DNA of 64,000 nucleotides from Vicinamibacteria bacterium (GCA_963668695.2 CAXXLQ010000004.1:448001-512000); one strand, 5' to 3'; positions 24,836-63,183 are shown, counted from the first letter of the stretch. Notes: generated from the sequence alone by a model not told the origin. Made by a program: numbers and translations.

Positions 24836-25069
24836 CAGCCTGTGGTGAAACCCGGGTGAGCGCCGAGGCCGGCCAGTTCTCCCGGTGGGGGCGAGGCGCC
24901 CGGCTGACAAGGCGCGTGAGGGAGGAGCCCCCACCGGGAGAACTGGCCCGGGTGTATTTCGACCGAAACGCAACGAAGAGCGGAGCGAAGCGGAGTGGTT
25001 CAGCCGGGATGGATCGCCGGCCGAGCCCCCACCGGGAGAACTGGGCCGCGTGGGTTTCACCACCGGCTG
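24836..25069. mobile_element. MITE family A with three inserted units (234 bp)
   Basis: TIRs; left flank CTAG; 18-mers at 24873, 24929 and 25027. Confidence 0.85.
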
Positions 25070-25226
25070 CTGAAGCCGACCTCGGCCTCCCCACGGCTTG
25101 GCCGCATACACAGCCGGGCATCGCCCAGCGAAGGCCGCGTAATGTCGTGTCCGCGACCATCTTGGGATCCACCTTTGGATTCTGACTCGCTCTGGAAGAG
25201 AATCCTGGGGACGGCATATTTGCCTC

Positions 25227-25451
25227 ATGAAGACAATCATTGATATTCCTGGTGGCGAACTGGAGGATGCCATGCGCTTCAGCGGCGCGAAGACCAAGCG
25301 GGAGGCGGTGGTGACAGCGCTCGCGGATTTCAATCGACGGCGCCGCATGGCGGAGCTCATCGCCTGCGCGGGCACCTGTCCCGATCTGATGACCGTGGAG
25401 GAGCTACGGGCGGATCGGCGCCGCCGGGAGGATTCCGTTGATCCTGATTGA
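25227..25451 (+). CDS. vapB: VapB-family antitoxin
   Basis: MKTIIDI...GAKTKREAVVTAL pattern. Confidence 0.8.
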   Translation: MKTIIDIPGGELEDAMRFSGAKTKREAVVTALADFNRRRRMAELIACAGTCPDLMTVEELRADRRRREDSVDPD

Positions 25452-25575
25452 CACGTCGTCATGGATTCATTTGCTGCGGCCGTCCGCAGATCCCGCCGGC
25501 ACGGCGCCGGGCTTGAATCGGCGGACACGGACTTCGAACGGCTGGCCGGCATCTCCCCTGCCGGGGTTGTCTGAC
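25438..25575 (+). pseudogene. vapC (PIN domain) remnant with internal deletion
   Basis: TTG-ILIDTSSWIHLLR N-terminus and an out-of-frame ADTDFERLA C-terminal motif less than 100 bp apart. Confidence 0.65.
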
Positions 25576-25626
25576 CCCCGCGCGGAATAGCCCCCGCGAC
25601 CGGTCCGCCCTCGGTATCCTGACCCG

Positions 25627-27429
25627 ATGGTGGAGCGGGAGGCGTTTCGGGAGCAGGTTCGCGAATCGAGCGACATCGTCGACGTGATCGGGGAGGCGGT
25701 GGCGCTTCGCCCGGCGGGACCCGGGCGCTACACCGGGCTGTGCCCGTTCCACAACGAGACGGCCCCGTCCTTCCACGTCAACGCGGAACGCGGTTTCTTC
25801 CACTGTTTCGGCTGCAAGGAGAGCGGTGACGTCTTCGGTTACCTGATGAAGCGCGAAGGCCTCTCCTTTCCCGAGGCTCTCCATCAACTGGCGCGTCGCG
25901 CCGGGATCCCGATTCCCGAAGCCGACCCCAGGAAGGCCTCCCGCGACGAGAAGCTTCGGGCCGCCAACCGGAAAGCGCTCGACTACTACCAGCGCGCCCT
26001 GCGGAGCGAGGCCGGCGCCCGGGCGCGCGCCTATCTCAAGAAACGTGACATCACCCAAAGCACGATCACCGAGCACGGCCTGGGATTCGCCCCGGACCGC
26101 TGGGACGACCTCACGACCACCCTCGAAAAGTCCGGGATCACCCGCGCGACCCTGATCGAAGCGGGACTCACGCGGGAGGCCCCCCGCGGCGGACACCGGG
26201 ACTTCTTCCGGAGCCGCCTCATCGTTCCCATCCTTGACGGCCAGGGGCGTGCCGCCGGCTTTGCCGGCCGGAGCCTCGACGGGTCGGAGCCGAAGTACAT
26301 CAACAGTCCCGACACCCCCGTGTATCGGAAGCGTTCCGTCCTTTACGGCTTGCATCGGGCGCGAAGCGCCATCCGCCGCGAGCGCACCGCCATCCTGTTC
26401 GAGGGGTATTTCGATTGCCTGTCGGCCTGGCAGGCGGGAATTGCGGGTGCGGTGGCCGTGTGCGGCACCGCCCTGACGCCGGAGCACGCGAAGCTGTTGG
26501 CGTCCCAGGCTCGCGACATCGTGCTCGCCTTCGACGCCGACGCGGGGGGAAGACGCGCCACCCTCGCGAGCCTGCCGATCCTCCTCGAGGCGCAGCTCCG
26601 GGTGCGGGTGGCTCCCCTTTCCGGCGGGCGCGACCCTGACGACGTCATCCGCGAAGAAGGCGCCGCCAACTTTCGGGAGGCGATCCGGACGGCTCCGGCG
26701 TTCGTGGAGTTCCTCGTCCACGAGGCGCTCCAGCGAGCCCATTCCGCCGCCGGCGGCGGCCGGGCGGCGGCGGCCCGGGAGGTCATCGAGATCATCGCCC
26801 GGGCGCCAAGCCCCCTCGACCGGGAGGAATGGCTCGGCGAAGCGGCCGGGCCGCTCGGCTTCTCGCTGGAGAGCGCCCGGGAAGAGATGGCGCGGCTCCG
26901 GGGCCGGGCCCGGGGCGGAAGGCCGCGGGCCCAGGATGGCGGGCCGCCCGGCGGGCCGCCCCCTCCAGCCCCGCCCCGGAGGTCACCCACCCCCGCCGAG
27001 CGGGACCTGATCCGCTGGGCGGATGCCAGACCCGACGAGGTCGCGGACCTCCTCCGGCAAGCGGCGCCGGGGGAACTCGAGGGCCTCGCGAGTTCGTCGA
27101 TCCTGCTGGATCTGAAGCAGGCGGCGGACGCCGGCGGCGCCCGGGTCGCCGGCCGGCTCAAGGAACTGGCCGCCGAAGCGTCCGACCGGCAGCGCCTCCT
27201 GATCGAGATCCAGATGGAGCCCGTGGGCCTCAACACCGAAAAGCAGCGTCCGAAGGACTGCCTCGACGCGCTGAGGGTCTTGAGGCTCCGGCAGCAGCAG
27301 GCAAACCTCCGCTCAGCCGCCCGCGGCAGTGGCGACGAAGCCCTCGACGCCCTGTCGAAGTTACAGCGCGTCAGCGAGGAGATTGACCGGCTCCAGGAAG
27401 CCTTGCCGCCGGAGAGCCACCAGGGCTGA
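25627..27429 (+). CDS. dnaG: DNA primase
   Basis: CPFH..CFGC zinc finger, KYINSPDT, EGYFD, FDADAGG. Confidence 0.97.
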   Translation: MVEREAFREQVRESSDIVDVIGEAVALRPAGPGRYTGLCPFHNETAPSFHVNAERGFFHCFGCKESGDVFGYLMKREGLSFPEALHQLARRAGIPIPEADPRKASRDEKLRAANRKALDYYQRALRSEAGARARAYLKKRDITQSTITEHGLGFAPDRWDDLTTTLEKSGITRATLIEAGLTREAPRGGHRDFFRSRLIVPILDGQGRAAGFAGRSLDGSEPKYINSPDTPVYRKRSVLYGLHRARSAIRRERTAILFEGYFDCLSAWQAGIAGAVAVCGTALTPEHAKLLASQARDIVLAFDADAGGRRATLASLPILLEAQLRVRVAPLSGGRDPDDVIREEGAANFREAIRTAPAFVEFLVHEALQRAHSAAGGGRAAAAREVIEIIARAPSPLDREEWLGEAAGPLGFSLESAREEMARLRGRARGGRPRAQDGGPPGGPPPPAPPRRSPTPAERDLIRWADARPDEVADLLRQAAPGELEGLASSSILLDLKQAADAGGARVAGRLKELAAEASDRQRLLIEIQMEPVGLNTEKQRPKDCLDALRVLRLRQQQANLRSAARGSGDEALDALSKLQRVSEEIDRLQEALPPESHQG

Positions 27430-27803
27430 CCCCCCACGCAGGTTCGGCTCTGACGGGTGACAGCTTTGTACATGCTAGAGTGCCCGGTTGCTGTTTAGCG
27501 TTGCCCGGTCGGCAGTCGCGCGGGCTGGACGCCGGACAGACTCGAACTTGCGCGCGCCTGCTGTCCGTTCCCGCCGGGAATTTCCTGTCCAGAGAGTTGG
27601 CGGGACTTTTTCGTCCGATAGCGCGACAGGCTCAATGCGAACAGGCCCGATGCGAAGGCCGGCGAACCCTCATTCGCCGGCCTCACCCCACCTTGCCCGT
27701 GCGGAGCCGGAACTGACACGACCGGCGCCCTTCCTCTTTCGGCGGTACCCCAAGCCGGTAGCGCACACCGTCTGAGGATCGAGATTCGCCCGGAGGATTA
27801 ACC

Positions 27804-29552
27804 ATGGAACACGCGGAAACCCCCGGGTTCGACCTGGAGCTGCTCCGTGATTTCGGAGTCGAAGCCCAGACCGACGAGGTCAAGGCGCTCGTCGCGCTCG
27901 GAAAAGACCGCGGCTATCTGCTCACCGAAGAGGTTCAGGAAGCCTGGGGCGACGACCCTCCCGAGGAGTTTCTCGAAAGCCTGACCGAATGGGGTATCCC
28001 GATCTTCGAGTCCGAAGTGGAATACGAGAAATCCCGGGACGAAAGCGGCGCCAACCTCGACCTGACCCCGAGCGCCATCGAGCGCACCAACGACCCGGTG
28101 CGGATGTATCTCCGCGAAATGGGCGTGGTTCCGCTGCTCGACCGGGAGGGTGAAGTCCGGATCTCGAAGCGCATCGAGCGCGGGAAGAACCGCTCCAAGC
28201 GGGCGATCACCAGACGGCTCTACATCATCAATCAACTGCTTGAGGGCTTCCAGCCACAGATCGAGGCCGACACCATGCAGCTTCGGGAGAACTTCGAGGT
28301 TGCCGAGGGCGGGACCACGATCCGCCACGACCAGCATCGCGAACGGATCCTCGCGGCGATCTCCAGGCTGGAAGTGTCCTACAAGCTGTATCGAAGGCGC
28401 GTGTCTCTGCTTCGAAAAGCGGCCCGCCGCACCCGTGACTATCGGCGCCGGGCAAACGCCGCCGCACGCACGCGTATCGAGATGAGCCATGTCATCTGGA
28501 CCATGCGTCCGACCGACGGCCTGCTCAGCCGCTGGATGGAGGAACTCAAGGGCCTTTGCGAAGACGCGGGCCGGGCGACGTGTGAACTCGATGTTTGCGC
28601 CGCTCTCCGGAGGGAGATCGACGCTTCCGAAGACGCGACGGCCGAAGACAAGACCGCACTCCGCCGCGACGTGATGCGGCGACAGCGCGAAGCCCAGGGC
28701 AGGCTCGACGGCGCTGGCCACGTCATGCCCGAATTCGGCACCACCAAGAAGATCAAGTCGGCACGGCTGGAAGTGCTGCCGGAGCTCGAAGCCGCCGTCG
28801 CCGACATCGACCTTGGCGAGGAACGCGCCCAACTGGCAAAGCAGGACCTCGTGCAGGCCAACCTGCGGCTCGTCGTTTCCATCGCCAAGAAGTACACGAA
28901 CCGCGGGCTCCAGTTCCTGGATCTCATCCAGGAGGGCAACATCGGCCTCATGAAGGCGGTGGACAAGTTCGAGTACCGCCGCGGCTACAAGTTTTCGACC
29001 TACGCCACCTGGTGGATCCGCCAGGCCATCACCCGCGCGATCGCGGACCAGGCTCGGACGATCCGAATCCCGGTGCACATGCACGAGACCATCAACAAGC
29101 TGCACCGGACCCAGCGGAGCTTGGTACAGGAGCTCGGCCGCGAACCGCGTCAGGAGGAAATCGCGGACCGGATGGGCATGACGCCGTCCAAGGTCCGGAA
29201 GGTCATGAAGATCGCCCAGGAACCGATCTCGCTCGAGACCCCGATCGGCGAGGACGACGACGGCCATCTCGGTGACTTCATCAAGGATCCGAACGCCCCC
29301 TCACCGCAGGAGCTCGTCATCAACAAGCGGCTTCAGGAAACCATCGAAGCCGTGTTGAAGACCCTCACCCCGCGCGAAGAAGCCGTCCTCGAAAGCCGGT
29401 TCGGCCTCGGAGGACTCCAGGAAAAGACTCTCGAAGAGGTCGGAAAACAGTTCGAGGTAACCCGCGAGCGCATTCGGCAGATCGAGACGAAGTCCATCCG
29501 CAAACTGCGTCACCCGGCGCGTGCCCGCAAACTGCGGCAATTCTCCGAATGA
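27804..29552 (+). CDS. rpoD: RNA polymerase primary sigma factor
   Basis: [46 protein letters not shown]. Confidence 0.97.
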
Positions 29553-29559
29553 TCCCGAG

Positions 29560-29756
29560 CAGCCTGTGGACAAAGTCACATGGCGTTCGGCGCGCGATCC
29601 ATCCCGGCGGAACCGCCCCCCCACCGGGAGAACTGGCGCTTCGCACCGCTCGGCGTTGCGCTTCGGTCGAAATACGCCCGGTATTCCTCCCTCGCGCGCC
29701 TTGTCCGCCTGGCGCCTCCCGCGCCTCGGCGCTCACGCGACTTTGTCCACAGACTA
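29560..29756. mobile_element. MITE family A with one inserted unit (197 bp), inverted orientation
   Basis: CAGCCTGTGGACAAAGTC/GACTTTGTCCACAGACTA termini; 18-mer at 29619. Confidence 0.85.
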
Positions 29757-29779
29757 CTCAGCGGCCCCTTCGATCGGCC

Positions 29780-29852
29780 GGGCCCATAGCTCAGTGGTTA
29801 GAGCGGCCGGCTCATAACCGGTTGGTCCCAGGTTCGAGTCCTGGTGGGCCCA
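29780..29852 (+). tRNA. tRNA with CAT anticodon, probably tRNA-Ile2 (lysidine type); CCA not encoded
   Basis: Acceptor stem GGGCCCA/TGGGCCC, D arm AGCTCAGTGGTTAGAGC, loop CTCATAA, T loop GGTTCGAGTCC; resembles ileX in sequence and in position after rpoD. Confidence 0.9.
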
Positions 29853-29939
29853 CCGGCCGCAGTTTCACCGGAGTCCGCGGGTCGTCCGTCCGGTTGCTCC
29901 GCATCGCGCGTAGCGCGCCTCCCGAGAGGGGCTGACACA

Positions 29940-30677
29940 GTGCTCCCCGAGCTCGCGACGCTCCGGGAAGTTCAGGGCTTCGATATACGGCTCGGCGCCT
30001 ACGATCGGGAACTCGCGCAGGCTCCCCGCACCCTGAAGGGCATCGACGCCGAGATCGAGGCGGCCAAATCCCGCGTGATGGCGGTGGAGGAGGAACTCAA
30101 GGAGACGGGGGCCGAACGGCGGCGGGCCGAGACCGAACTCGAAGAAGCCGAGGCGAACCTCGACAAGTACGAAGACCAGCTGCTCGGAGCGCGCAGCAAC
30201 GTCGAATACAAGGGACTGCAACAGCAGATCGCCAGCACGAAGACGAGAATCGGGACGATCGAAGACCGGATCCTCGAGCTCATGGAGAAGGCCGACGAGT
30301 TGGAAAAGAAGCTGGCCGACCGCAAACGGACGTTTCATGATCGGGGTGCCGTGCTGGAAACGCGAAAGACCGAGATTCGGTCCCACGCCCGGCAACAGGA
30401 AGACAAACGGGATCAGCTTCGCCAGCGGCGCGCGGCGGCCTTTACCGGTCTTTCCGAGGAGATCGCGTTCCGCTACGAGCGAATCCGCGGGGCACGCCGC
30501 GGTATTGCGGTGGCGCCCGTGAGGGATGAGCGCTGCACCGGGTGCAACGTGCGCTTACGGCCCCAGCTCCTTGAGGAAATGCACGTGGGACGCTCGATCC
30601 TGGCCTGCGAGACCTGCGCCCGCATCCTGTTCCTGGAACGGTCACCGGCCCCACCGGCCCCACGGGCCCCTGCATGA
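29940..30677 (+). CDS. Coiled-coil plus C4 zinc-ribbon protein (DUF164 type)
   Basis: Long coiled coil, CTGC...CETCARIL; GTG start inferred. Confidence 0.85.
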   Translation: MLPELATLREVQGFDIRLGAYDRELAQAPRTLKGIDAEIEAAKSRVMAVEEELKETGAERRRAETELEEAEANLDKYEDQLLGARSNVEYKGLQQQIASTKTRIGTIEDRILELMEKADELEKKLADRKRTFHDRGAVLETRKTEIRSHARQQEDKRDQLRQRRAAAFTGLSEEIAFRYERIRGARRGIAVAPVRDERCTGCNVRLRPQLLEEMHVGRSILACETCARILFLERSPAPPAPRAPA

Positions 30678-32362
30678 GCCGGCTTCTGAGGGAGCGGGCC
30701 GAGAAAAGGCGCGCTCGGGAAACCTGGCTTGAAGACGCGGACGCCGGCCTGGGGGTTCCGCCTGCAAGCGATACCCAACGGGGACTCCGGGTCGCCGTCG
30801 GCTACCCCAATCGTTACGCGCTCGGGATGTCCAACGTGGGCTTTCAGGCCGTCCATCGCTTCTTTCATCTGTTGCCGGACACGGCGAGCGAGCGGTTCTT
30901 CCTTCCCGACCGGGCCGAAATGGACGAATACCGGAGGACCGGGCTTCCTCTGCGTACGCTCGAGAGCGGGAGTCCCGTCCGGGGTTTCGATGTGGTGGCG
31001 TTTTCGATCACCTTCGAACCCGACCTCATCCACCTCGTCGAGATGCTGCAACTCGCCGGCATCCCCCCGTTGGCGGCGGATCGCAGCGCCCGGGACCCAC
31101 TGGTCATCGCCGGCGGGCCGGTCACGTTCCTGAACCCCGAGCCCCTCGCCCCGTTCATCGACGCCTTCGGAGTCGGAGAGGCGGAGGCGCTGCTTCCGAC
31201 CCTCAGCGGGATCCTGCAAGCGGAGACCCGGGACCAGCGCCTCCGAGGTTTTGCCGAAGAATCCGGGTTCTACGTACCGGCCACCCACGAGGTCGAGTAC
31301 GCGCCGGAAGGGCAAGTGCTCAGCCGCCGCGTCCAGGGTGCGCCGCGGGTGGTGCGGGCCCGCATGGGCAAGGATGCGCGGTTCCCGCCTCCGGCCACCT
31401 ACATCCTCACCCAGGACACCGAGATGTCGGACAAGTTCCTGGTCGAGGTATCGCGCGGCTGCCCCACGCTCTGCCGGTTCTGCTGGGCCGGCTACAACTA
31501 TCTGCCGAAGCGTTCCTTCGACGTGGAGCGTCTGCTGGCGCTGGCCCGCATGGCTCGCCCTCACACCGACCGGATCGGGCTGGTTTCCACCGCGGTGGGC
31601 GCGCACCGCGAAATCGTCCCGCTGGTTTCGGATCTCCGGGATCAGCGATTCCGGGTCAGCGTTTCCTCCATTCGCTTCGAGGATGTCCGCGACGAGTTCG
31701 TCCGGCCGCTCGCCGAGAGCGGGGAGCGCACCGTCGCCATCGCCCCCGAGGTCGGCACCGACCGGCTGCGGAAAGCGATCCACAAGCGGGTCACGAACGA
31801 CGAGATCCTGGACAAGACGAAGATCTTGCTCGACGCGGGAATCGAGAACCTGAAGCTCTACCTGATGGTGGGGCTGCCGGGGGAAACCGACACCGACGTG
31901 GAAGCCATCGTCCCGCTGGTGCGCCGCATCCGCGACCTCGTGCGGGCGAAACGGCGCGGCGGCCGCACCATTGCAAGCGTCAACCCCTTCATCCCGAAGC
32001 CGGGCACTCCCTTCCAGTGGCGCCCCATGGCGCCGCTTCCGCTGCTGACCGCGCGGATCCGGTATCTGCAACGCGAGCTGGGCGCTCTCGCCGGGGTCGA
32101 AGCGCACTGCAAGTCCCCGCGCATGGAACGCCTCCAGGCGCTCCTGGCCCTGGGCGACCGCCGTCTCGCCCCGGTCATCCTCGCGCTCGCCAACGGACGC
32201 GGCCTGAACCGAAGCCTCAAGGATGCCGGACTGTCGCTCGACGCCTACCTCTACCGGCAGCGGGCGCTCGACGAGGAACTCCCCTGGAGTTTCCTCGACA
32301 CCGGCATGAAGGACAGCCTGCTCAAGGACCAGCTCGCCAAGGCCGACCAACTCGTCGCGTAG
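30674..32362 (+). CDS. Radical SAM protein (B12-binding/TIGR03960-like)
   Basis: YPNRYALGMSN, RGCPTLCRFC, MVGLPGET, FIPKPGTPFQW. Confidence 0.88.
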   Translation: MSRLLRERAEKRRARETWLEDADAGLGVPPASDTQRGLRVAVGYPNRYALGMSNVGFQAVHRFFHLLPDTASERFFLPDRAEMDEYRRTGLPLRTLESGSPVRGFDVVAFSITFEPDLIHLVEMLQLAGIPPLAADRSARDPLVIAGGPVTFLNPEPLAPFIDAFGVGEAEALLPTLSGILQAETRDQRLRGFAEESGFYVPATHEVEYAPEGQVLSRRVQGAPRVVRARMGKDARFPPPATYILTQDTEMSDKFLVEVSRGCPTLCRFCWAGYNYLPKRSFDVERLLALARMARPHTDRIGLVSTAVGAHREIVPLVSDLRDQRFRVSVSSIRFEDVRDEFVRPLAESGERTVAIAPEVGTDRLRKAIHKRVTNDEILDKTKILLDAGIENLKLYLMVGLPGETDTDVEAIVPLVRRIRDLVRAKRRGGRTIASVNPFIPKPGTPFQWRPMAPLPLLTARIRYLQRELGALAGVEAHCKSPRMERLQALLALGDRRLAPVILALANGRGLNRSLKDAGLSLDAYLYRQRALDEELPWSFLDTGMKDSLLKDQLAKADQLVA

Positions 32363-32456
32363 ACGCGTAGAGCGGTCCGAAACCGGGGCCGTCGTTTACC
32401 GATTGGGGGGTACTGACACCCGCGTGTTTTGGGATGGGCCCCGGTTCCGACAGGCG

Positions 32457-32487
32457 GGCAGCGAACAAGTTCGCTGCCATCTTTTCT
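32457..32487 (+). terminator. Perfect hairpin between convergent genes, possible intrinsic terminator
   Basis: GGCAGCGAAC-AA-GTTCGCTGCC followed by ATCTTTT. Confidence 0.45.
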
Positions 32488-32595
32488 CGGCGCTCGGCGC
32501 ATTGCCATCGCCCGCCAGAGACCAGCAGAAGCCACATAACGTCACCAACCCTGGCGGCGCGTTCCCAGGCGTCCGCGGCTAAGGGAGGAGGCGAT

Positions 32596-32862
32596 TCAGC
32601 GCTGCGGTATCTCGGGCTCCTCGACAGGAGCCGCAGCCGAGGAATCGACGTCGGAAACCGCACTCCGACTCCGCCGTTCGTCACTCAGCTCGCGCATCTC
32701 TTTGAGACTCCCCACCCGGGTGATGGTCGTTGTAATCTCGTCCCTGCGAAACGAGGCAGTCGCCACCGCCAAAGAGATAAGCGCGACCGTGATCGCCACC
32801 ATCAGCGCGGCGGCAATGAGAAGCCACTTGCCACGGCTCTTGGGAAAAGGCTTCCGGGGCAT
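32596..32862 (-). CDS. Small hypothetical membrane protein
   Basis: Basic N-terminus plus TM helix, directly downstream of pgeF. Confidence 0.5.
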   Translation of the reverse strand: MPRKPFPKSRGKWLLIAAALMVAITVALISLAVATASFRRDEITTTITRVGSLKEMRELSDERRSRSAVSDVDSSAAAPVEEPEIPQR

Positions 32863-32875
32863 TTCTGCTGCGCCT

Positions 32876-33769: not shown

Positions 33770-33879
33770 GTTGTCGAGCGCCGAGCTGGATGGCGGCAGG
33801 CACGTCCGTCATTGCGGGGAACACGGGCGGGAGGGCCATCCGTACGATCCAGGCCATGTCTCTCGCCCGCCTCCGGCGG

Positions 33880-34105
33880 GCTGTGCCGGTCTGGAGGCCC
33901 CCACCGGGAGGACTGGCCGGCGTTCCCTCCCGGCGGCACCACGGGGATGTTGAGCAGTGCGCAGTCTCGCTGCGCTTCGCGCAGCGGTGCCGGCCCCCGC
34001 CGGGAGAACTGGCCAGAGGTTGGCGTTCCCCGGCCTGAATCCCGCAAGGGCAGACAGCAACGCGCCGTTCCGCGGCCCTGCGGGCCGCGGGTGCCGACCG
34101 GAGGT
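33880..34105. repeat. REP-like hairpin cluster with two 18-bp units; the last hairpin is the IS110 target
   Basis: TGCCGGTCTGGAGG[unit]CCGGCGTTCCC, TGCCGG[unit]CCAGAGGTTGGCGTTCCC, TGCCGACCGGAGGTC. Confidence 0.75.
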
Positions 34106-34119
34106 CTATACCCTTCGGA

Positions 34120-34335
34120 CTTCGTTTTCTGGGCCCTCCGGTGTGAGAGGCACCGAAGGGCCCTACTTCACCAACCTGTTAGCCGATCCGCCGGGAGCAA
34201 CCAACCGGAGGCATGTGTTTCGAACACCTACGCCGGACTGTGCCTCGACGGATCTTGGCCGTGATGGAACGCACGGTAGAAGGGCAGCGCCATCGAGCAG
34301 CCAGTATAGGCCCCAGCGAACATCACGGCGGCTGA
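34120..34335 (+). ncRNA. Predicted IS110 bridge RNA (ends approximate)
   Basis: Two stem-bounded internal loops with segments matching the target (34204-34211, 34230-34238) and the donor junction (34275-34283, 34304-34311). Confidence 0.8.
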
Positions 34336-34374
34336 CTTCCCTCGGGGGGCTTCCCTCGGAAGGACAACAGCGCC

Positions 34375-43674: not shown

Positions 43675-45266
43675 CGCCGGCCCCCTTGGGCGCCTTCCAG
43701 GCGCGCGACCAGCGCGCGGAATCGGGTGCCCCGGTCCGCGTAGTTTTCGAAAAGGTCGAAGCTGGAGCAGCCGGGGGAAAGAAGGACGATCCCGCCAGGG
43801 CGGGAACGCGCGAAGGCGGCCGCCACGGCTCCGTCGAGGGTGCCCTGGACCTCCACCGGCACGCTGCTGATTTCGGTTGCGATCCGGGCCTTCGTCCGCC
43901 CGATCGCCTGGATCCCCTCCACCCGGCCGAGCGACCCCTCCAGATCGGAAAACCGGCCGCCCTTGAGGATCCCTCCCAGAATGAGCTGGATCCCGCCGCC
44001 CGCCGTTCCGGAAAGCGCATCGAGGGCCGCCCGGGTCGCCTGCAGGTTCGTCGCCCGGGAGTCGTTGATGAACCGGACCCCCGCCACCGAGCCCGCTTCC
44101 TCGAGGGCGTGGGGCAGGCCCGAAAAACGGGCCGCCGCCGTTTCGATGGCGTCCCGGCGAACCCCAAGCACACTGGCGGCCGCGGCCGCGGCCGCCAGGT
44201 TCTTCTGCTGGTGGCGGCCTGGGAGCCGGAGCGCGGACAGCCGGGCGAGGACCCGCGTTTCTTCTCCGTCCCGCCGGAGGACACTTTCGGAATCCAGGAG
44301 GACTTCCGGATCGTGCGCGCCGGCCGGCCCGGCGAACGGCAGCCAGCGCGCGCTGCTCGCCCGGATGCCGGCGGTCGCGAGATCGTGAGCCACGGGGTCA
44401 CCGCCGTCGCAGACGACCCAGTCGATGGCCGTCTGGTTCTCCAGGAGCCGGGCCTTGGACCGGCGGTAGTCGGCGAGATCCGGGTGCCAGTCGAGATGGT
44501 CCTGACCCACCTCCAGCAGCACGGCGACGTGCGCCCGGAAGCGGGCGATCGTCGCCAACTGGAAACTCGAGGTCTCGACCACCGCGATCTGATCGGGGCC
44601 GAACGATCCAGCGAGCGCGGTAAGGGGTTCGCCGAGGTTCCCGCAGGCCCTGACCGGGGTCCCCTGCGCCTCGAGCGCTTCCGCAAGCAGAGTCACCACG
44701 CTGGACTTTCCCTTGGTCCCCGTCACGGCCACCAGCCGGTCCCAGGGTTCGCCCAGCGCTCGGTATCCCAGCTCGAGTTCGCCCCAGACCGGGATTCCCT
44801 CGCGCTTTGCCGCTCTCAGGATGTCCGCCCGCGGCGGGACTCCGGGGCTCGTCACCACGAGCGCCATCCCGGCCAGCAAAGACGGGGGATGGCCCCCGAA
44901 GTGAACGCGCGCTCCCAGCGACCGGAGCGCGGAGGCCGCCGGAATGGCGGGCTCCGGTCGGGAGTCCGCAACCAGCACCCGCCGCCCGATACTGCAGAGA
45001 TAGCGCGCCGCCGCCTGGCCGCTCGCGCCGGCGCCGAGCACCAGTACGTCCGGCCCCGGGACAGGGTCTGCACAGCCTGTGGACAAAGTGGCGTGAGCGC
45101 CGAGAGCGGTGAGGCGCCCGGCTGACGAGGCGCGCGAGGGAGGAATACCGGGTGTATTTCGACCGAAGCGCAACGACGAGCCACGCGAAGCGAGGCGTTT
45201 CAGACGGGATGGATCGCCGCTCGAACGCCGCGTCGCCTTGTGCACAGGCTGTGTTAGTGCCGTCAT
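43671..45266 (-). CDS. murD: MurD ligase with an in-frame MITE in its N-terminus
   Basis: VLGAGASG, VTGTKGKS, ETSSFQL, DHLDWH, NDSRATN, LLSPGCSSFD. Confidence 0.92.
   Translation of the reverse strand: MTALTQPVHKATRRSSGDPSRLKRLASRGSSLRFGRNTPGIPPSRASSAGRLTALGAHATLSTGCADPVPGPDVLVLGAGASGQAAARYLCSIGRRVLVADSRPEPAIPAASALRSLGARVHFGGHPPSLLAGMALVVTSPGVPPRADILRAAKREGIPVWGELELGYRALGEPWDRLVAVTGTKGKSSVVTLLAEALEAQGTPVRACGNLGEPLTALAGSFGPDQIAVVETSSFQLATIARFRAHVAVLLEVGQDHLDWHPDLADYRRSKARLLENQTAIDWVVCDGGDPVAHDLATAGIRASSARWLPFAGPAGAHDPEVLLDSESVLRRDGEETRVLARLSALRLPGRHQQKNLAAAAAAASVLGVRRDAIETAAARFSGLPHALEEAGSVAGVRFINDSRATNLQATRAALDALSGTAGGGIQLILGGILKGGRFSDLEGSLGRVEGIQAIGRTKARIATEISSVPVEVQGTLDGAVAAAFARSRPGGIVLLSPGCSSFDLFENYADRGTRFRALVARLEGAQGGRR
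45073..45251. mobile_element. MITE family A, empty copy (179 bp), inside the murD reading frame
   Basis: TIRs CACAGCCTGTG/CACAGGCTGTG; ORF continuous from ATG 45266 through the element. Confidence 0.88.
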
Positions 45267-45269
45267 CGG

Positions 45270-53725: not shown

Positions 53726-53754
53726 AACCGTACTCGCCCCCGGTGACCGCCTAG

Positions 53755-53933
53755 CAGCCTGTGGTGAAACCCACGTGAGCGCCGAGGCCGGTGAGGCGCC
53801 CGGCTGACAAGGCGCGTGAGGGAGGAATACCCGGTGTATTTCGACCGAAACGCAACGCCGAACGCAGCGAAGCGGAGTGGTTCAGCCGGGATGGATCGCC
53901 GGTCGAACGCCACGTGGGTTTTGCCACCGGCTG
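53755..53933. mobile_element. MITE family A, empty reference copy (179 bp) with CTAG duplication
   Basis: CTAG-CAGCCTGTGGTG...GCCACCGGCTG-CTAG. Confidence 0.9.
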
Positions 53934-53944
53934 CTAGCCCCACA

Positions 53945-54205
53945 AGGGCCGGCCCGTTCTCCCGTTGGGGGCCGCCACCGCGGCCCGGAGGTCGGAAACG
54001 CCGACCGGTTCTCGCGGTAGCGGCCTTCAGACCGGCACCGGCAGCCCGGAGGTGAGGAACGCCGGGCAGTCCTCCCGGTGGGGCCCTTCAGACCCCCACC
54101 GGGAGAACTGGCCGGCACCGCGGCCGCAGGCCGCGAAACTCCCATCGCCAACCGCGAAAAAGCGCGGGGACGGCTGGAAGCGCCGACCTCTGGTCGGCAC
54201 TGCGG
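53945..54205. repeat. REP-like hairpin cluster with three 18-bp units or variants
   Basis: GGCCTTCAGACCGGCA empty at about 54022 and filled at 54058-54118; GCGCCGACCTCTGGTCGGCA. Confidence 0.7.
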
Positions 54206-54317
54206 CAGGCTACGATGCTCAGCACTTGGTCCCCGCCGGACTCGCCGAAAGGCCCCGGCGGGGTTATTCGTGTCCGACCGCGCTTGGCCTCAAGCGCGCT
54301 GTTTCGTTCGCCGGCCC

Positions 54318-55382: not shown

Positions 55383-55611
55383 GAGGCGGTGATGGTAGCC
55401 GTGCGGACCCGGGACGTCGGCAAGCGACAGCTCCGGGGAACCATCGGCATGAGCCTTGCTTGCGCATCGTGGCGTACGCGTCGGGACTGAAAGAGCCCGG
55501 TGGCCGCCAGTGCTGCGGGCCCTCGAAGGCGCGCGCCCAAGGAAGAGACGAAAAGACCGTGACGGGCGGTTGCGGGGCGTCCACCGGTCGCGCGACTGGC
55601 AGGAGACGGAA

Positions 55612-57018
55612 ATGACGATCCGACTGTTCATGATTCTTGGAGTTCTGCTTGGGTGCCAGGCCTGCGACGACGACTCCACGGCACCGACCAGCCCACAGCG
55701 GATGCGGACGCCGACTCCGCCCCCCGCTCCGGAGCCTGACCCCGGACCCGGTCCGGTGCCGCCCGAGATCGCGGCGTGGGTCGAGGCCAATGCGCTTCCA
55801 TTCAGCGGAACCCACCTGTCGCTTCCCCACACGGATATCGAGTTCCTGCGCGACCTGGTGGGCGATGCCCGGATCGTCGCCCTCGGAGAAAACACGCACG
55901 GCACCCGCGATTTCTTCGAGATGAAGGCCCGGATTCTCCGCTTCCTCGTCGAGGAGATGGGCTTCAACACCTTCGCCATCGAGGCGACCTGGCCCGAATC
56001 CCTCCTCCTGGACCGCTATGTGCGCACCGGCGAGGGCGACCCGGCGCGGCTCCTCGCCGGGCTCTACTTCTGGACCTGGAACACGGAATCGGTGCTCGAA
56101 ATGATCGAGTGGATGCGGGAGCACAACGAAGCCGGCGGCGACGTCGGTTTCCACGGGTTCGACATGCAGTATCCGGGGATGGCCCTCGATAACGTCCTCG
56201 AGTACGTCGGAGAAGTGGACCCCGACCGGGTTGACGAAGTCACCATGCTGGTGGAATGCCTGCAGTTCTACGCGAACCGCGACGGCGGCAGGTTTCCACG
56301 TGACCGGTACGACGACCTGAGCGCAACCTATCGGGCCGAGTGTGGCCAGTCCCTCCAAGAAGCGCGTGAACTGCTCCTGGCGAACGGGGAGGAGTACGAG
56401 GCAGTGTCGGGAGAAGACGCCTTTGAAGTGGCCCTCCAGAGCCTGCGGGTCGCGTTCCAGTACCACCTCAACGCTACCGGCCACCAGTATCGCGACGAGT
56501 CCATGGCCGAGAACACGGAATGGATCAGCCGCCGGATCGGCCCGGAGGGACGGATGGTGCTCTGGGCGCACAACTACCACGTCTCGAATCAGAGGTATGC
56601 GCAGGGTTCGTATCTGAAGGAGACGTTCGGCGACGACATGCTCGTGCTTGCCTTCACGCACGAACGCGGCAACTTCACGGCGTATAGCCGAAACGCCCAG
56701 AGCAATCAGGCGTGGGAGCTCGATCCCCCGGTCGCGGATTCGGTCGAGCACTACCTGTCAGCCGCTTCCGCCCCGCAGTTCATTCTGGACCTGCGCGAGG
56801 TGGACGAGAACACGGTTGGCGGTTCGTGGCTCACCGAGCCCCGCCAGACGCGCCACATCGGTTGTTGCTACGAGCAGGACGAGCCAGAGGGCTACTGGGT
56901 CTCCCGCCGGATGACGGCGCTCTACGACGTGATCGCCCACTTCGAGTCCACCGAAGCGACCACCGTCCTTCCCTTCTACCTCTCGGTCTTCGAGACGGAC
57001 GGAGTCGGAAGCCGATAG
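55612..57018 (+). CDS. Erythromycin esterase family protein, probable lipoprotein
   Basis: IVALGENTHGTRDF, RDESMAEN, VLWAHNYH; Cys after hydrophobic signal peptide. Confidence 0.88.
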   Translation: MTIRLFMILGVLLGCQACDDDSTAPTSPQRMRTPTPPPAPEPDPGPGPVPPEIAAWVEANALPFSGTHLSLPHTDIEFLRDLVGDARIVALGENTHGTRDFFEMKARILRFLVEEMGFNTFAIEATWPESLLLDRYVRTGEGDPARLLAGLYFWTWNTESVLEMIEWMREHNEAGGDVGFHGFDMQYPGMALDNVLEYVGEVDPDRVDEVTMLVECLQFYANRDGGRFPRDRYDDLSATYRAECGQSLQEARELLLANGEEYEAVSGEDAFEVALQSLRVAFQYHLNATGHQYRDESMAENTEWISRRIGPEGRMVLWAHNYHVSNQRYAQGSYLKETFGDDMLVLAFTHERGNFTAYSRNAQSNQAWELDPPVADSVEHYLSAASAPQFILDLREVDENTVGGSWLTEPRQTRHIGCCYEQDEPEGYWVSRRMTALYDVIAHFESTEATTVLPFYLSVFETDGVGSR

Positions 57019-57129
57019 ACCCGCCGCTCATGGCCTCCACCGGGAGAAACGCCCATGATCGGGTCCGCCTGCACGCCGCGCCAGTCATGAAAAAAGCGCG
57101 GCCCTCGCCTTGGCAGGGCGCAACGTCAT

Positions 57130-57285
57130 CGGCGCCGGTTTCGCGCTCCCGCGCGATGCCGGCCGGAGGCCAGCGTTCCAAGTCGTCCCCGCGTTCCTTC
57201 TCGTTCGGCAGTACGCGGTTTCGCGGCCCGGTGGGCCGCGATGCCGGCCAGTTCTCCCGGTGGGGGCGTGAACACCGGCGTTCCC
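57130..57285. repeat. BIME-like REP unit with one 18-bp unit
   Basis: Aligns with 7450-7625; the first hairpin is empty here but filled at 7495. Confidence 0.7.
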
Positions 57286-57289
57286 CGCC

Positions 57290-59199
57290 TCAGAGATCCA
57301 GCGCGGCCGGGTCGGGGGCGCCGTCACGGATGAGCAGTCGGCGCTCGGCGGGGTCCTTGCCCATCAGCTTGACGATGAAGGCGTCCGCGGTTTTTCGGTC
57401 GGGGATTTCCACCCGGAGGAGACTCCGGGTCTCGGGGTTCAGCGTCGTGTCCCACAGCACCTTGGGCTGCATCTCCCCGAGACCCTTGAAGCGGGTGATC
57501 GTCGGGTTCTTCGCGCCCGCGTTCCGGAGGATGACTTCCTTGTCCGCCTCGTCCCGGGCCCAGTGGGTCGTGCTCCCGATATCAACCCGGTAGAGCGGCG
57601 GCTGCGCGACAAAGATCCGTTCCGCTTCGAGCAGCTTCCACATGAACTTGACGAAGTAGGCGAGCAGCAGGGTCGTGATGTGGTTCCCGTCGGCATCGGC
57701 GTCGGCGAGCAGCACCACCCTCCGGTAGCGAAGCTTTTCGGGGTCGCAGTCGTCGCCGGTCCCGCAACCCAGCGCGAGCGCGATGTCCCTCAGCTCGGCG
57801 TTGTCGGCAACCTTCGCCCGGGTAGCCTGCGCGGCGTTCAGGATCTTGCCCCGGAGAGGGAGCACGGCCTGGCGCATGCGGTCCCGCCCCTGTTTCGCGG
57901 ACCCTCCGGCGGAGTCTCCTTCGACGATGAATATCTCGGTCTCCTCGGCATTCCTCAGGGCGCAGTCGCTCAGTTTGCCCGGCAGGACGCTGCGGGTCCT
58001 GGTTTCGGCCTTTCGGGAGACCGCCGCCGATGCGGCGCGCGACGCCTCGCGGGCCCGGGCGGCGAGCACCACCCGGTTCGCGATCCGCTCCGCCGCGGTG
58101 GGCGACTGATTGAGCCAGCGCTCGAGTTCGAGGCGCACGGCGGCGTCGACCGGCGCCCGCACCTCGGGGTTGTTCAGCCGATCCTTCGTCTGACCCTGGA
58201 ACTGAGGGTTCGGCAGGAACATGCTGAGGATCGCGAGCACCCCCTCCCGTACGTCTTCGGCCGCGATGGTCAGGCCCCGCGGGATCAGGGAATGGGTCTC
58301 GAGGTAGTTCCGGACGGCCTTGGAGAGTCCGTCGCGGAGACCCGTTTCGTGGGACCCGCCGGACCCCGTCGGGATCCCGTTGACGTAACTGCGGAACTCC
58401 TCGCGCGGAGCCTCGGTCCAGCCGAGCACCAGTTCCAGGCGGCCTTCGCCGTCGAGCGGATCCCGCGAAAGCTCGAACGCCGCCTCGTGGGCCAGGGTCA
58501 GCTTCCGGTCCCGGACCACGGCGTCGAAGTAGTCGGGCAGGCCGCGCGCCTGCTTCCAGTCGTGCGCTTCCCCGGACGCTTCGTCCGAGAAGGTCAGTTG
58601 AAGACCCCGGTGGAGGTAGCTGGTCTCGCGCATCCGGGCGGCGATCCGCTTTCCGTCGAGCTTCGGGTCCGGAAAGATCTCGGGATCGGGCAGAAAGGCG
58701 ATCTCCGTGCCGGTGCCCTTGCCCGAGCCGGTCTCCTTCAGTTTCCCGAGGGGCTTGCCGCGCCGGAAACGCATTTCCCACTGCCGGCGGTGGCGCCGCA
58801 CCTTCGCCGTAAGCGAACAGCTCAGCGCGTTCACCACCGAGGCCCCGACGCCGTGCAGGCCGCCGGAAGCGTGGTACGCCCCCCGATCGAACTTCCCGCC
58901 CGCGTGGAGCGTCGTGAGGATCACCTCGATGGCGGGCTTCCCGGAGGGTTTGTGGACATCCACCGGGATCCCGCGGCCGTTGTCCGTGACACAAAGCTCG
59001 CCGCTCTTCTTGAGGGTCACATCAATCCGGGACGCGTGCCCATTCATGGCTTCGTCCACGCTGTTGTCCAGGATTTCCCACACCAGGTGGTGGAGTCCCT
59101 CGACGTCCGTTCCCCCGATGTACATCGCCGGGCGCTTCCTCACCGGCGCGAGACCCTCGAGGACGGTGATGTCGCGGGCGGTGTAGTCGTCCCGGGGGC

Positions 59200-59203
<4 letters not shown>
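57290..59203 (-). CDS. parE: Type II topoisomerase subunit B (ParE-like)
   Basis: [48 protein letters not shown]; no large GyrB insertion. Confidence 0.8.
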
Positions 59204-61551
<2,348 letters not shown>

Positions 61552-61558
61552 GGGTTAA

Positions 61559-61809
61559 CAGCCTGTGGTGGAACCCGGGTGAGCGCCGAGCCCGGTGAGG
61601 CCCAGTTCTCCCGGTGGGGCCAGTTCTCCCGGTGGGGGCCCGGCTGACAAGGCGCGTGAGGGAGGAATACCGGGTGTATTTCGACCGAAACGCAACGAAG
61701 AACGCCAGTTCTCCCGGTGGGGGGGCGAAGCGGAGTGGTTCAGCCGGGATGGATCGCCGGGCGAGCCCCCACCGGGAGAACTGGGCCGCCTGGGTTTCAC
61801 CACAGGTTG
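61559..61809. mobile_element. MITE family A with four inserted units (251 bp), TTAA duplication
   Basis: 18-mers at 61602, 61620 (tandem), 61705 and 61767. Confidence 0.88.
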
Positions 61810-61813
61810 TTAA

Positions 61814-62046
61814 CAGCCTGAGGACGGAGTGACGTGAGCGCCGAGGCCAGTGAGGTGCCCGGCTGACAAGGCGCGCGCGAGAGGAGCCCCCACCGGGAGA
61901 ACTGGGCCGAGTGTATTTCGAGCGAGGCGCAACGATGAGCGCCGCGAAGCGGCGCGGCCAGTTCTCCCGGTGGGGGCCAGCCGGAGTACATCGCTGGCCG
62001 AGCCCCCACCGGGAGAACTGGGCCGCGTCACTCTGTTCTCCGGCTG
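61814..62046. mobile_element. MITE family A with three inserted units (233 bp), in tandem with the previous copy
   Basis: Shares TTAA 61810-61813; 18-mers at 61888, 61958 and 62004. Confidence 0.85.
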
Positions 62047-62088
62047 TTGGCGGTTTACCGGGCAGCGGCCGGCGCCGGAGCGGAGAGA

Positions 62089-62469
62089 ATGAACGCCGTG
62101 CTCAGCGGCCGGCATCAGGGATTTGCGCTCCTCGCGCTGTCGGCGATCAGCCTGGGCGTCTCCGTTCTGCTCCGGGAGCTGGCCGGAGACGTCACCCTCT
62201 GCGGCGTCAAGGCCCTGTCGGGGCTGCCCTGTCCGTTCTGCGGCGGTGTCCGCGCCACGGCGGCGCTCGGACGCGGCGCACTCGTGGAGGCGTTCGGCTG
62301 GAATCCGGCGCTCACCCTGCTCCACGCCGGGATGGTCATTAGCGGAGCGGCGCTGGTCCTGGGAGTGACGCCGCCGTGGTTCGCTCCCGACCGCCAGCGG
62401 TTCGTGTTCCGCGCCGCGATCGCCATCCTGCTGGTGAACTGGGTCTATCTGGTGGTAGCGGGCCGCTGA
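62089..62469 (+). CDS. DUF2752-like membrane protein
   Basis: C....GLPCPFCGGVRA...NP motif with TM helices. Confidence 0.8.
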   Translation: MNAVLSGRHQGFALLALSAISLGVSVLLRELAGDVTLCGVKALSGLPCPFCGGVRATAALGRGALVEAFGWNPALTLLHAGMVISGAALVLGVTPPWFAPDRQRFVFRAAIAILLVNWVYLVVAGR

Positions 62470-62505
62470 AGGCCTCCGGCGGGTGGATGCCGGGGCGGGC
62501 CGGAC

Positions 62506-63183
62506 TCACCCGGCGGCTTCGACATATACCCGCACCTTCAGACGCGTCGCTCCACGCGAGCCGTTGGACCGGATGGTGAGCCAGCGCTCCAGCACGCCCC
62601 GGTAACGCCGGGTTTCGAGGGTCACCCTGAGTGTCGCCGCCTCCCCCGGAGGGATCACCATGCGGTCGGTCACCGCCGCCGCGCACGCGCATGCCGAGGC
62701 GATGCGGCCGATCTCCAGATCCCGCTGTCCGGTGTTCTTCAGAGCGAACTCGCGAACGAGCACCTCACCGGGGGCCGCCCGCCCGAAGTCCCACTCCCCG
62801 GGCTCGATCTCGAGGCGCGGCCCCCGCTGAAGGGCGTTCCCGGAAGCCGCCGCGAAACCTCCGAAGAGCGCCGCGGCGAGAAGGCAAGCCAGCGCTAGCA
62901 GCCCGTGGTGGAACTCGCGTGAGCGCCGAGAGCGGTGAGGCCCAGTTCTCCCGGTGGGGCCAGTCCTCCCGGTGGGGGCCCGGCTGACAAGGCGCGCGAG
63001 GGAGGAGCCCCCACCGGGAGAACTGGCCCGAGTGTATTTCGACCGAAGCGCAACGCAGAGCGCCGCAAAGCGCCAGTTCTCCCGGTGGGGGGGCGGTTCA
63101 GACGGGATGCATCGCCGCTCGAGCCCCCACCGGGAGAACTGGGCCGCGTGAGTTTCACCACGGGCTGGTCGACTTCGTTTCAA
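62506..63183 (-). CDS. DUF1573-domain secreted protein with an in-frame MITE in its signal peptide
   Basis: WDFG, FALKNTG..L.I..IASACAC, IPPGE; TTG start with AGGAGG RBS. Confidence 0.7.
   Translation of the reverse strand: MKRSRPARGETHAAQFSRWGLERRCIPSEPPPHRENWRFAALCVALRSKYTRASSPGGGSSLARLVSRAPTGRTGPTGRTGPHRSRRSREFHHGLLALACLLAAALFGGFAAASGNALQRGPRLEIEPGEWDFGRAAPGEVLVREFALKNTGQRDLEIGRIASACACAAAVTDRMVIPPGEAATLRVTLETRRYRGVLERWLTIRSNGSRGATRLKVRVYVEAAG
62899..63167. mobile_element. MITE family A with five inserted units (269 bp)
   Basis: TIRs CAGCCCGTGGTG/CACCACGGGCTG; 18-mers at 62942, 62960, 63009, 63073 and 63125. Confidence 0.88.

Follow-up and report, generated by a model that had tools for sequence, protein, structure and literature searches.

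An 18-nucleotide repeat unit that behaves like a very small mobile element in a marine Vicinamibacteria genome

We analyzed a 64-kb stretch of a marine Vicinamibacteria metagenome-assembled genome (MAG) and describe an 18-nucleotide (nt) repeat unit, U (CCAGTTCTCCCGGTGGGG), that recurs in it. The whole stretch of 64,000 nt is called the window and corresponds to C4:448001-512000 of genome G000, which comprises 4.10 Mb in four contigs at 67% G+C, with a completeness of 91.7% and an estimated contamination of 9.34%; coordinates without a contig name are window positions. The window holds 29 matches to U (≤3 mismatches), against 0.18 expected from shuffles. The principal host of U is a repeat of approximately 187 bp that begins CAGCCTGTGGTG..., ends ...CACCACAGGCTG, and folds into one long hairpin. 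This short noncoding repeat has the terminal inverted repeats (TIRs), the high copy number, and the insertion polymorphism of a miniature inverted-repeat transposable element (MITE), and it carries U at internal sites that we letter a to h.

Copies of the MITE in the window differ in the sites that are filled. The copy at 15347..15551 (minus strand) is filled at a (unit 15493-15510, minus), and the copy at 24833..25069 (plus) is filled at a, c, and g (units 24873-24890 plus, 24929-24946 minus, and 25027-25044 minus). The copy at 29560..29755 (minus) is filled at e (unit 29619-29636, minus) and lies 25 bp upstream of a tRNA-Met gene (29780-29854), the only match in an Rfam scan, which returned nothing on the MITE or on U. 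Copies at 45072..45252 and 53752..53936 (both plus) are empty. Near the end of the window, a copy at 61555..61815 (plus) has the pattern b+b+d+g (units 61602-61619 plus, 61620-61637 plus, 61705-61722 plus, and 61767-61784 minus). Adjacent to it, a diverged copy at 61810..62026 (plus), recovered as a partial high-scoring segment pair with 78% identity to the query copy, has c+f+g (units 61888-61905 minus, 61958-61975 plus, and 62004-62021 minus). The copy at 62896..63167 (plus) has b+b+c+e+g, with units starting at 62942 (plus), 62960 (plus; the variant T6C), 63009 (minus), 63073 (plus), and 63125 (minus). An initial annotation, made from the sequence of the window, had listed the unit patterns of six of these copies (as 15350, 24836, 29560, 61559, 61814, and 62899), and all six patterns were as it gave them.

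U is abundant and nearly invariant. Genome-wide, 1631 matches (≤2 mismatches) were found, 829 forward and 802 reverse, and a reversed-pattern control gave 0. Exact copies number 1288, and T6C is the single recurrent variant (156 copies). Positions beside U are also constrained, with G at -2 (0.92), G or C at -1, G at +1 (0.86), and C at +2 (0.87), and the conserved word around U is approximately 22 nt, G-S-U-GC. Base divergence from U among units is 0.78%, much below that of the MITE backbone, for which the mean is 9.0%, the median column 1.7%, and the best 18-column window 2.0%. Very few degenerate units occur at MITE sites, and partial units are scarce (lone 5' part, 11/1351; lone 3' part, 57/1602). 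U alone forms no hairpin or palindrome (DNA fold of the 23-mer, -2.8 kcal/mol; z, +0.47 and +0.23 on the two strands). Moreover, it has neither TIRs nor a target-site duplication, and its junctions swap out 1 to 3 nt instead.

How the sites of the MITE are occupied was determined by deleting all units from the genome in silico and searching with a unit-free copy. Among 364 full-length copies, 90 are empty, and 66, 72, 69, 51, 15, and 1 carry 1, 2, 3, 4, 5, and 7 units, respectively. Units are confined to eight positions, and orientation is constant at each: a (plus; filled in 117/364 copies), b (plus; 131/364, frequently as a tandem pair), c (minus; 166/364), d (plus; 2/364), e (plus; 37/364), f (plus; 2/364), g (minus; 155/364), and h (minus; position 142; 1/364). 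Thus, the seven insertion sites first proposed were all recovered, to be joined by the rare eighth site h, and their use is very uneven. That the combinations are non-nested was confirmed on the larger sample, in which 47 occupancy patterns occur and all four gametes are present in 10/10 pairs of the common sites a, b, c, e, and g. Occupancy of all sites is positively associated pairwise, and one pattern, bbcg, is over-represented (26 copies).

Each site is rewritten in the same way whenever it is filled. With junctions written in unit orientation and U' denoting a reverse-strand unit, filled alleles carry a cassette of 20 to 21 nt in place of 1 to 3 target nt, for a net gain of 18 at most sites and 19 at some. 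At site c, CCCGG-TAT-TCC becomes CCCGG-G[U]GC-TCC (on the forward strand, ATA becomes GC[U']C); AATA is present in 192/198 empty copies and AGCC in 160/166 filled copies. At site g, CGCGGC-GT-TCGG becomes CGCGGC-[U]GC-TCGG, with GAAC in 199/209 empty copies, GAGC in 151/155 filled copies, and 2 exceptions in each direction. Empty alleles that already carry the G/C flanks, which the initial annotation expected to be uncommon, numbered 0/198 at c and 2/209 at g. Site f (GG-TT-CAG to GG-[U]GC-CAG, in 2/2 filled copies) and site h (TCC-AT-CCCGG to TCC-[U]GC-CCCGG) also acquire GC, as does site a (CCGG-N-GAGGC to CCGG-[U]GC-GAGGC), where the net gain is 19. Sites d (ACG-GA-GCG to ACG-[U]GG-GCG) and e (GCG-GC-GCGG to GCG-[U]GG-GCGG) acquire GG. 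A single unit at b converts GAGGC-GC-CCGG to GAGGC-[U]GT-CCGG, with GT in 46/48 such copies and the GT state in 0/233 empty copies; a double unit reads [U][U]GC, with GC after the pair in 82/82. Overwriting toward G-[unit]-GC, as originally described, holds at c, f, and g, but the flank is GG at d and e and GT after a single b. Similarly, the net gain of 18 bp that had been reported applies to most sites, but the gain is 19 at site a and mostly 19 in a second repeat family described below. We note that in b pairs (for example, 61602-61637 and 62942-62977) the second unit is commonly T6C (39 T6C and 34 canonical in the two commonest junction strings) and that GTCC from the flank of a single b copy recurs within the T6C unit, a pattern which hints that the second insertion is partly homology guided.

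The state of a site is tied to its rewritten flank and only weakly to the backbone around it. Unit state and the adjacent 1 to 3 rewritten nt are tightly linked (r2, 0.94 to 0.98), but unit state and backbone single-nucleotide polymorphisms (SNPs) 1 to 10 nt away, outside the rewritten flanks, are not (mean r2, ~0.04 over 16 pairs; maximum, 0.13 at c+3). Pairs of backbone SNPs have a mean r2 of 0.20 at 1 to 5 nt and 0.10 at 6 to 10 nt. On a maximum-likelihood backbone tree from which columns near the sites were excluded, sites a, b, c, e, and g change state 87, 91, 100, 25, and 107 times, compared to 99.6, 107.4, 119.5, 35.7, and 116.8 times with shuffled labels. The tree check proposed in the initial annotation thus came out in its favor, as single gains with few losses do not explain the common sites (87 to 107 changes at a, b, c, and g versus 100 to 120 shuffled). 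Five control backbone SNP columns changed 12 to 55 times versus 66 to 85 times when shuffled, a contrast that is indicative only, as these columns belonged to the tree data and the tree has ~120 columns. Moreover, 20/36 pairs of copies with identical backbones are unlike in occupancy. The suggestion that sites map to bulges or junctions of the folded element did not hold: in the fold of the empty MITE, b and g fall at helix/internal-loop junctions, whereas a, c, and e lie within helices, and there is no general bulge or junction rule. Units show no replication-strand bias (762 leading versus 803 lagging; P = 0.31), nor do MITE orientation and filling at any site (all P ≥ 0.05), and thus the strand test gives no support to a lagging-strand single-strand mechanism.

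Gains of U recur at orthologous loci. The MITE at 62896-63167 has an orthologue without any unit in a sister genome, G001, whereas G000 has b, b, c, e, and g; genome G004 has no MITE there. The backbones of the five-unit copy and the empty G001 copy are nearly identical, locus-specific variants included, and the canonical rewriting is found at 4/4 sites. We note that the MITE is also missing from a 1616-nt contig of public run X13, in which 62891 is joined to 63162, and its presence is an insertion polymorphism among close strains and species. A broader comparison aligned the anchors and gaps between 400 kb of G001 and C4:447772-759834, which are ~95% identical. In this synteny set, 22 to 23 units are common to both genomes, and unit-sized indels with good flanks comprise 6 found only in G000 and 4 found only in G001; one indel in each group is messy or diverged, leaving ~8 clean unit-only differences, in both directions. 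The junctions again follow the rules, with GT to [U]GC at g at different loci in both genomes, TAT to G[U]GC at c, AT to [U]GC at h, and GA to [U]GG at d, and clean orthologous events have zero extra differences within 30 nt. Further units lie in larger gaps or poorly aligned flanks (75 in G000 and 23 in G001), many at MITE presence/absence differences, and 30 units in G000 and 7 in G001 belong to an unclassified group.

Two contigs of G000 nearly duplicate parts of C4, namely, C1 (144,504 bp; ~99.5% identical to C4:304184-421223) and C3 (31,195 bp; 97.6 to 99.7% identical to C4:3505137-3538141). They look like alternative haplotypes of a strain mixture, fitting the 9.34% contamination. Between C1 and C4 (51/52 units compared), 50 units are in the same columns, the differences being b filled versus empty and bb versus b. 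Between C3 and C4, which have 14 and 17 units, 11 are in the same columns, with clean differences at b in one case and at c in two adjacent repeats. In contigs from four public runs aligned to 61300-63400, which are short and end within repeats, apparent skips of 36 to 39 nt over b units may stem from other MITE copies, as these cross-map. Separately, the units at C4:61069 and C4:3834977, and those at C4:92470 and C4:3866468, have identical 35-nt flanks at a constant offset of ~3.774 Mb (C4 ~60 to 95 kb versus ~3,834 to 3,868 kb), suggesting that a large segment was duplicated within C4, either in the genome or by the assembly.

U is not restricted to the MITE. Of the 1631 units, 1324 lie in MITE-family matches and 307 elsewhere, with 295 outside MITE matches on C4 alone. 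The C4 contexts outside the MITE include five or more repeat families; a further 29 contexts are single, and 8 units form 4 small clusters. One of these families, family 2, is a small repetitive extragenic palindrome (REP)-like hairpin, GCCGG-TCTTCAGA-CCGGC, in which either arm can be filled (clusters of 98 and 36 units on C4). Others are 71-bp tandem arrays of the MITE right end (67 units on C4), a hairpin family related to family 2 (34 units on C4), and two families in which U lies just after a GC hairpin (13 and 9 units on C4). Examples of the arrays are G000:C1:82285-82515, C1:144111-144341, and C4:196642-196871, where units are exactly 71 bp apart and each repeat combines 53 bp from the right end of the MITE with a g unit.

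In family 2, the 127 empty alleles read GG-(TC/TG/CC)-TTCAG, and among its 63 filled alleles the middle is 21 nt in 53 ([U]GCC in 13 exactly, plus variants) and 20 nt in 10 ([U]GC in 5), with 2 nt replaced. The stem-loop has a z score of -3.3, and the unit enters at the stem-loop junction. One arm is preferred (58 versus 6 in an anchored count; 98 versus 36 by cluster size), and both arms are filled once. A doubly filled family-2 hairpin lies in the window at 54056..54121 (plus; units 54066-54083 plus and 54094-54111 minus) and has a 23-bp-class stem (-27.8 kcal/mol; z = -7.0). A unit at 57248..57265 (plus) occupies the opposite arm of a family-2 hairpin, GATGCCGG[U]GCGTGAACACCGGCG. We note that 12/12 family-2 units that start with G instead of C (GCAGTT...; for example, 54066-54083) have CC rather than GC next, such that the first base of the unit and the one that follows it change together. 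This coupling either marks a subfamily or indicates that the ends of the unit pair or are read jointly. Elsewhere in the window, two units lie in family-2 and family-3 hairpin repeats at 33899..34012 (33899 and 33995, both minus), two lie in small hairpin-repeat contexts outside a full-length MITE at 7495..7603 (7495 and 7586, both plus), and three with 1 mismatch each lie beside short GC-rich hairpins outside the MITE family at 4415..4529 (4415 plus, 4482 minus, and 4512 plus).

U has also entered a unique gene and U itself. One unit lies in a real gene, the open reading frame (ORF) C4:393139-396336, which encodes an AcrB-type pump (ACR_tran; Pfam E value, 5.8e-237) and has a third-position G+C content (GC3) of 0.91. 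Read in frame, the unit inserts the residues PHRENW after ...HRRRHGGEPG. G000 (C4 and C1) and G001 both have it, 14 other aligned orthologues from six genera lack it, and its junction is GAGCCCG-CG-CGGG to GAGCCCG-GC[U']-CGGG. Self-nesting was found in the form CCAGTTCTCCCGG[U]GC-GGGG, which occurs 63 times in G018, a genome of another genus, and 3 times in G023, in at least four outer contexts; no unit-in-unit structure was found in the 26 other genomes searched, G000 included. Nesting occurs at U's own CCGG^T, and its rule, CCGG-T to CCGG[U]GC, is the same as that of site a and family 2. Thus, because both the single-copy pump gene and U itself were entered without homology, true insertion exists.

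Other units that overlap potential coding sequence were less informative. Most long ORFs over units were rejected as spurious frames with the wrong GC3. A unit at C4:3267755 is common to four species and lies at a diverged gene end, and another, at C4:1220079, is shared and uninformative on origin. At C4:2611742, a T6C unit lies in frame as PVLPVG near the putative N terminus of a membrane protein (MSDRRRPVLPVGTRP...); G001 and G004 have an extra 12-nt internal duplication of this unit, G014 has a 13-of-18 look-alike, and the origin is ambiguous. A different 21-nt micro-insertion (ACTCTCC..GAGAATGCAAGG type) lies inside a unit in the G001 segment at ~255890, and the corresponding G000 unit (G000:C4:615214) is intact. 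G000 has 3 related copies (C4:311970, C4:793857, and C1:136862), and this may be a second, rare mini-element.

The distribution of U follows the host family. The 18-mer (≤1 mismatch) was found in 20/24 other sampled genomes of the family, including 15/15 of the genus, with counts from 8 to 776, and in 0/16 genomes of two sister families. Within the genus, G007, G010, G012, and G015 are poor in units, with fewer than 20 copies each, and G000, G001, G004, and G008 are rich in them, as is G018 of another genus. The exact 18-mer is conserved across five genera. A scan of 185,579 species genomes listed 80 of at least 112 matching stretches, and among those listed, 77/80 are in Vicinamibacteria/Acidobacteria MAGs and the other three are single copies. 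Two kinds of candidate enzyme were searched for by profile. PF01797, which covers Y1 transposases and REP-associated tyrosine transposases (RAYTs), was not matched in G000, where neither of 2 scored candidates was significant, or in G004; 13/15 other genomes of the genus have weak partial matches (E values, ~1e-7 to 1e-11; profile positions ~40 to 121), unrelated to unit count. PF00078, the reverse transcriptase profile, had 0 matches in G000, G004, and G008 and one or two matches in G001 and G002 only.

We conclude, with a probability of roughly 0.6, that U is a very small noncoding cassette that is mobilized in trans and written repeatedly into DNA, and that it is closest to the small dispersed repeats of cyanobacteria. 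The initial annotation had proposed recurrent, site-preferential insertion from a template of ~21 nt that overwrites its target, and the orthologous gains, the pump gene, and self-nesting support that proposal. We infer that the machinery is sequence specific, acts at the DNA level, and differs from both RAYT/IS200-type Y1 enzymes and reverse transcriptases. The piece that is written would comprise the core of 18 nt and one or two constant bases of flank, (G/C)-CCAGTTCTCCCGGTGGGG-G(C/T/G), of ~20 to 21 nt, and it would take the place of 1 to 3 target bases, for a net gain of 18 or 19 and no target duplication. Targets would be short G/C-rich motifs in or next to hairpin-forming repeats, of which CCGG^T is the clearest and GGC^G(C/T), CG^G, and GCGG^T are others, with a fixed orientation at each target. 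Resident MITE copies would be struck independently at few sites, and filled copies would keep transposing, which together would give rise to the non-nested combinations.

Several observations weigh against a trans-mobilized cassette, and some of them point to short-patch gene conversion, in which each site was filled on one or a few occasions and its state, filled or empty, was then copied, along with 1 to 3 flank bases, among MITE copies. Conversion would shuffle sites into all combinations and permit precise losses. It would account for the near-perfect coupling of flank and unit states, for G000/G001 differences in both directions, and for the joint change of the adjacent repeats at C3 19541 and 19671. 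Moreover, at a locus compared in three genomes, G000 and G004 have a g unit where G001 has the canonical GT instead, such that either precise loss or parallel gains are needed, and the difference at C1:44543 is surrounded by ~5 clustered SNPs in ~80 nt, as in a conversion tract. Power is a further concern, as backbone linkage is weak throughout and the tree of ~120 columns is poorly resolved, which limits the linkage and parsimony tests. Clean outgroup polarity is available for just one insertion into unique sequence, that in the pump gene, and the other unique loci tried were old or ambiguous. All compared genomes are MAGs, and the enzyme search drops two obvious machineries and names no replacement in a genome that is only 91.7% complete. 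Conversion is nonetheless unable to place a unit in a single-copy gene, in U itself, or in unrelated repeat families. Its tracts would need to end ~3 to 5 nt from the unit, and r2 at 3 to 10 nt is mostly below 0.05 and at most 0.13. In addition, the five-unit MITE retains private backbone variants between its four sites, and clean events lack any extra SNP within 30 nt. We therefore regard conversion as an unlikely explanation of the whole. The frequent gene conversion raised in the initial annotation may apply to part of the MITE-internal events, but it cannot place a unit where homology is absent. True insertion best explains the pattern, with short-patch conversion as a possible source of additional gains and of precise losses within the MITE family.

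Two other explanations dispense with a dedicated enzyme or with mobility of U. Template switching at stalled hairpins, in which the nascent strand copies one of ~1600 units through G/C microhomology and switches back, would suit hosts that form hairpins: the MITE is one long hairpin, family 2 is a stem-loop, and other contexts lie directly after short GC hairpins. Left flanks usually end in GG, GC, or CG and the right junction is G(C), which provides 1 to 2 nt of microhomology, and profile searches of G000 and G004 found neither a RAYT nor a reverse transcriptase gene. Constant cassette ends across targets and the rarity of partial units do not fit such a process, however, and microhomology is lacking at the return junction in the pump gene. 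Moreover, mirror positions of the MITE hairpin are not co-filled (b, 131 versus h, 1; c, 166 versus d, 2), a result by which, together with the one-arm preference in family 2, we also rejected a quasi-palindrome template from the opposite arm. A 2-base difference between the arms of the doubly filled window hairpin shows that neither served as template for the other, and the two replication strands are used alike. We consider template switching improbable. Amplification of MITE subfamilies from master copies with different unit sets, combined with ordinary recombination of units as inert modules of a mosaic, would explain why bbcg is over-represented and why occupancy at each site is positively associated with that at the others. 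Filling of site e tracks a backbone subfamily (r2 up to 0.24), and part of the pattern is thus inherited, a point against repeated writing as the full account. So is the absence of simple accumulation with age, as copies with more private backbone divergence do not carry more units (rho, -0.03); taken with amplified patterns such as bbcg, this indicates that filled MITE copies transpose too. Amplification is contradicted as the sole explanation by the orthologous gains, the synteny indels, and the pump gene, and it sits poorly with the number of changes at a, b, c, and g on the tree, with differences between copies of identical backbone, and with units outside the MITE. Very improbable on its own, it survives as a contributing process.

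What is known of other short repeats helps to place U. Elhai and colleagues reportedly described in 2008 (Genome Res 18:1484) small dispersed repeats (SDR4 to SDR6) of the Nostocaceae, which are said to be 21 to 27 nt long, high in copy number, noncoding, and found inside MITEs, other repeats, and their own copies. According to passages in two papers, SDR5 inserts precisely between the third and fourth bases of HIP1 (PMC4390886), and SDR-like repeats were not found outside the Nostocaceae among HIP1-rich cyanobacteria (PMC5861425). U resembles the SDRs as a noncoding, high-copy repeat of tens of bases that lies in MITEs and other repeats, varies in presence in otherwise identical sequence, chooses its sites precisely, and has no known enzyme. 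Of the features that would place it among them, U is a dispersed ~20- to 30-nt repeat with hundreds of copies or more, is present or absent in orthologous sequence, and nests in MITEs and in itself. It differs in belonging to another phylum (Acidobacteriota), in its presumably unrelated sequence, and in a core that, at 18 nt, is slightly below the 21 to 27 nt reported for SDRs; in addition, its junctions replace 1 to 3 target bases, it is documented in frame within a gene, and it nests in itself at CCGG^T. The host being an acidobacterium, U is at most an analogue of the SDRs and not a member by descent.

Other classes fit less well. REP sequences and their doublets (REPINs) are short, abundant, and mostly extragenic, often form inverted pairs with long hairpins, and are thought to be moved in trans by a single-copy RAYT (TnpA-REP) gene, as stated in PMC3116915 and PMC6006769. 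U is likewise short, very abundant, and mostly extragenic. It is not palindromic, however, PF01797 is unmatched in G000 and G004, and U enters other repeats at fixed positions with replacement of bases; we therefore rejected U as a REP/REPIN-RAYT element on both the palindrome and the RAYT gene. U was also rejected as a MITE, as it lacks TIRs and replaces rather than duplicates 1 to 3 nt, and retroelement-templated insertion of the retron, diversity-generating retroelement, or group II intron type was rejected on the 0 matches to PF00078 in G000, G004, and G008. Rickettsia palindromic elements (RPEs), attributed to Ogata et al. in 2000, are reportedly palindromic repeats of 100 to 150 bp found in frame within protein genes. 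The likeness is that of a noncoding repeat tolerated in frame in an essential-type protein gene, with U adding 6 residues to a loop of an AcrB-family pump, but U is 18 nt and offers just one clear in-gene case among 1631 units. DNA uptake sequences (the DUS of Neisseria and the USS of Haemophilus) are thousands of copies of one short word that arise by point mutation and drive, largely in genes. U shares with them an exact short word, equal on both strands, conserved across the genera of a family and often in inverted pairs behind genes, but it is gained as one block, its junctions are defined, and it avoids genes. Mosaic repeats, such as bacterial interspersed mosaic elements (BIMEs) in Escherichia coli and Neisseria intergenic mosaic elements (NIMEs) with the 20-bp dRS3, set short modules side by side in variable combinations. 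BIMEs and palindromic units (PUs) are mentioned in PMC2884548. These intergenic elements resemble the present case in being built from few short modules in variable combinations, whereas U is a single module that is inserted at set positions within a MITE bounded by TIRs, replaces target bases, and has been gained at orthologous loci. Literature searches for SDR-type elements, with subscription journals outside their coverage, returned only papers on cyanobacterial repeats, REPINs, and HuH enzymes and no description of U.

Mobile DNA is normally thought to need either recognizable ends of tens of bases and a transposase or a hairpin and a Y1 enzyme. To our knowledge, the sole described exception is the SDRs of the Nostocaceae, a single unexplained case since 2008. 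The behavior of U is that of one of the smallest known mobile elements, and U would be a second, phylogenetically independent case of a very small mobile repeat, in another phylum. Its anatomy is unusually clean, with ~1,600 near-identical copies, few targets with exact junctions, empty and filled orthologous pairs, self-nesting, and an in-frame gene insertion. Closed genomes that span a few to ~1,600 copies make the mover of tiny elements testable, by gene content and by long-read population data. The units also matter to their host and to its study, as they give rise to long and perfect hairpins behind genes, have lengthened a protein, and make MAG assemblies both larger and more fragmented. 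We speculate, more tentatively than for mobility itself and with the balance of probability still against it, that marine Vicinamibacteria may possess an undescribed DNA-writing activity that recognizes an 18-nt word, copies it as a 20- to 21-nt cassette into short CCGG^T-like targets and removes 1 to 3 bases, without a reverse transcriptase, an HUH/Y1 enzyme, terminal repeats, or target duplication. If so, U would be the smallest mobile element documented outside the cyanobacteria and a handle to a new class of insertion enzyme, and the Nostoc SDRs could rely on an enzyme of this kind as well.

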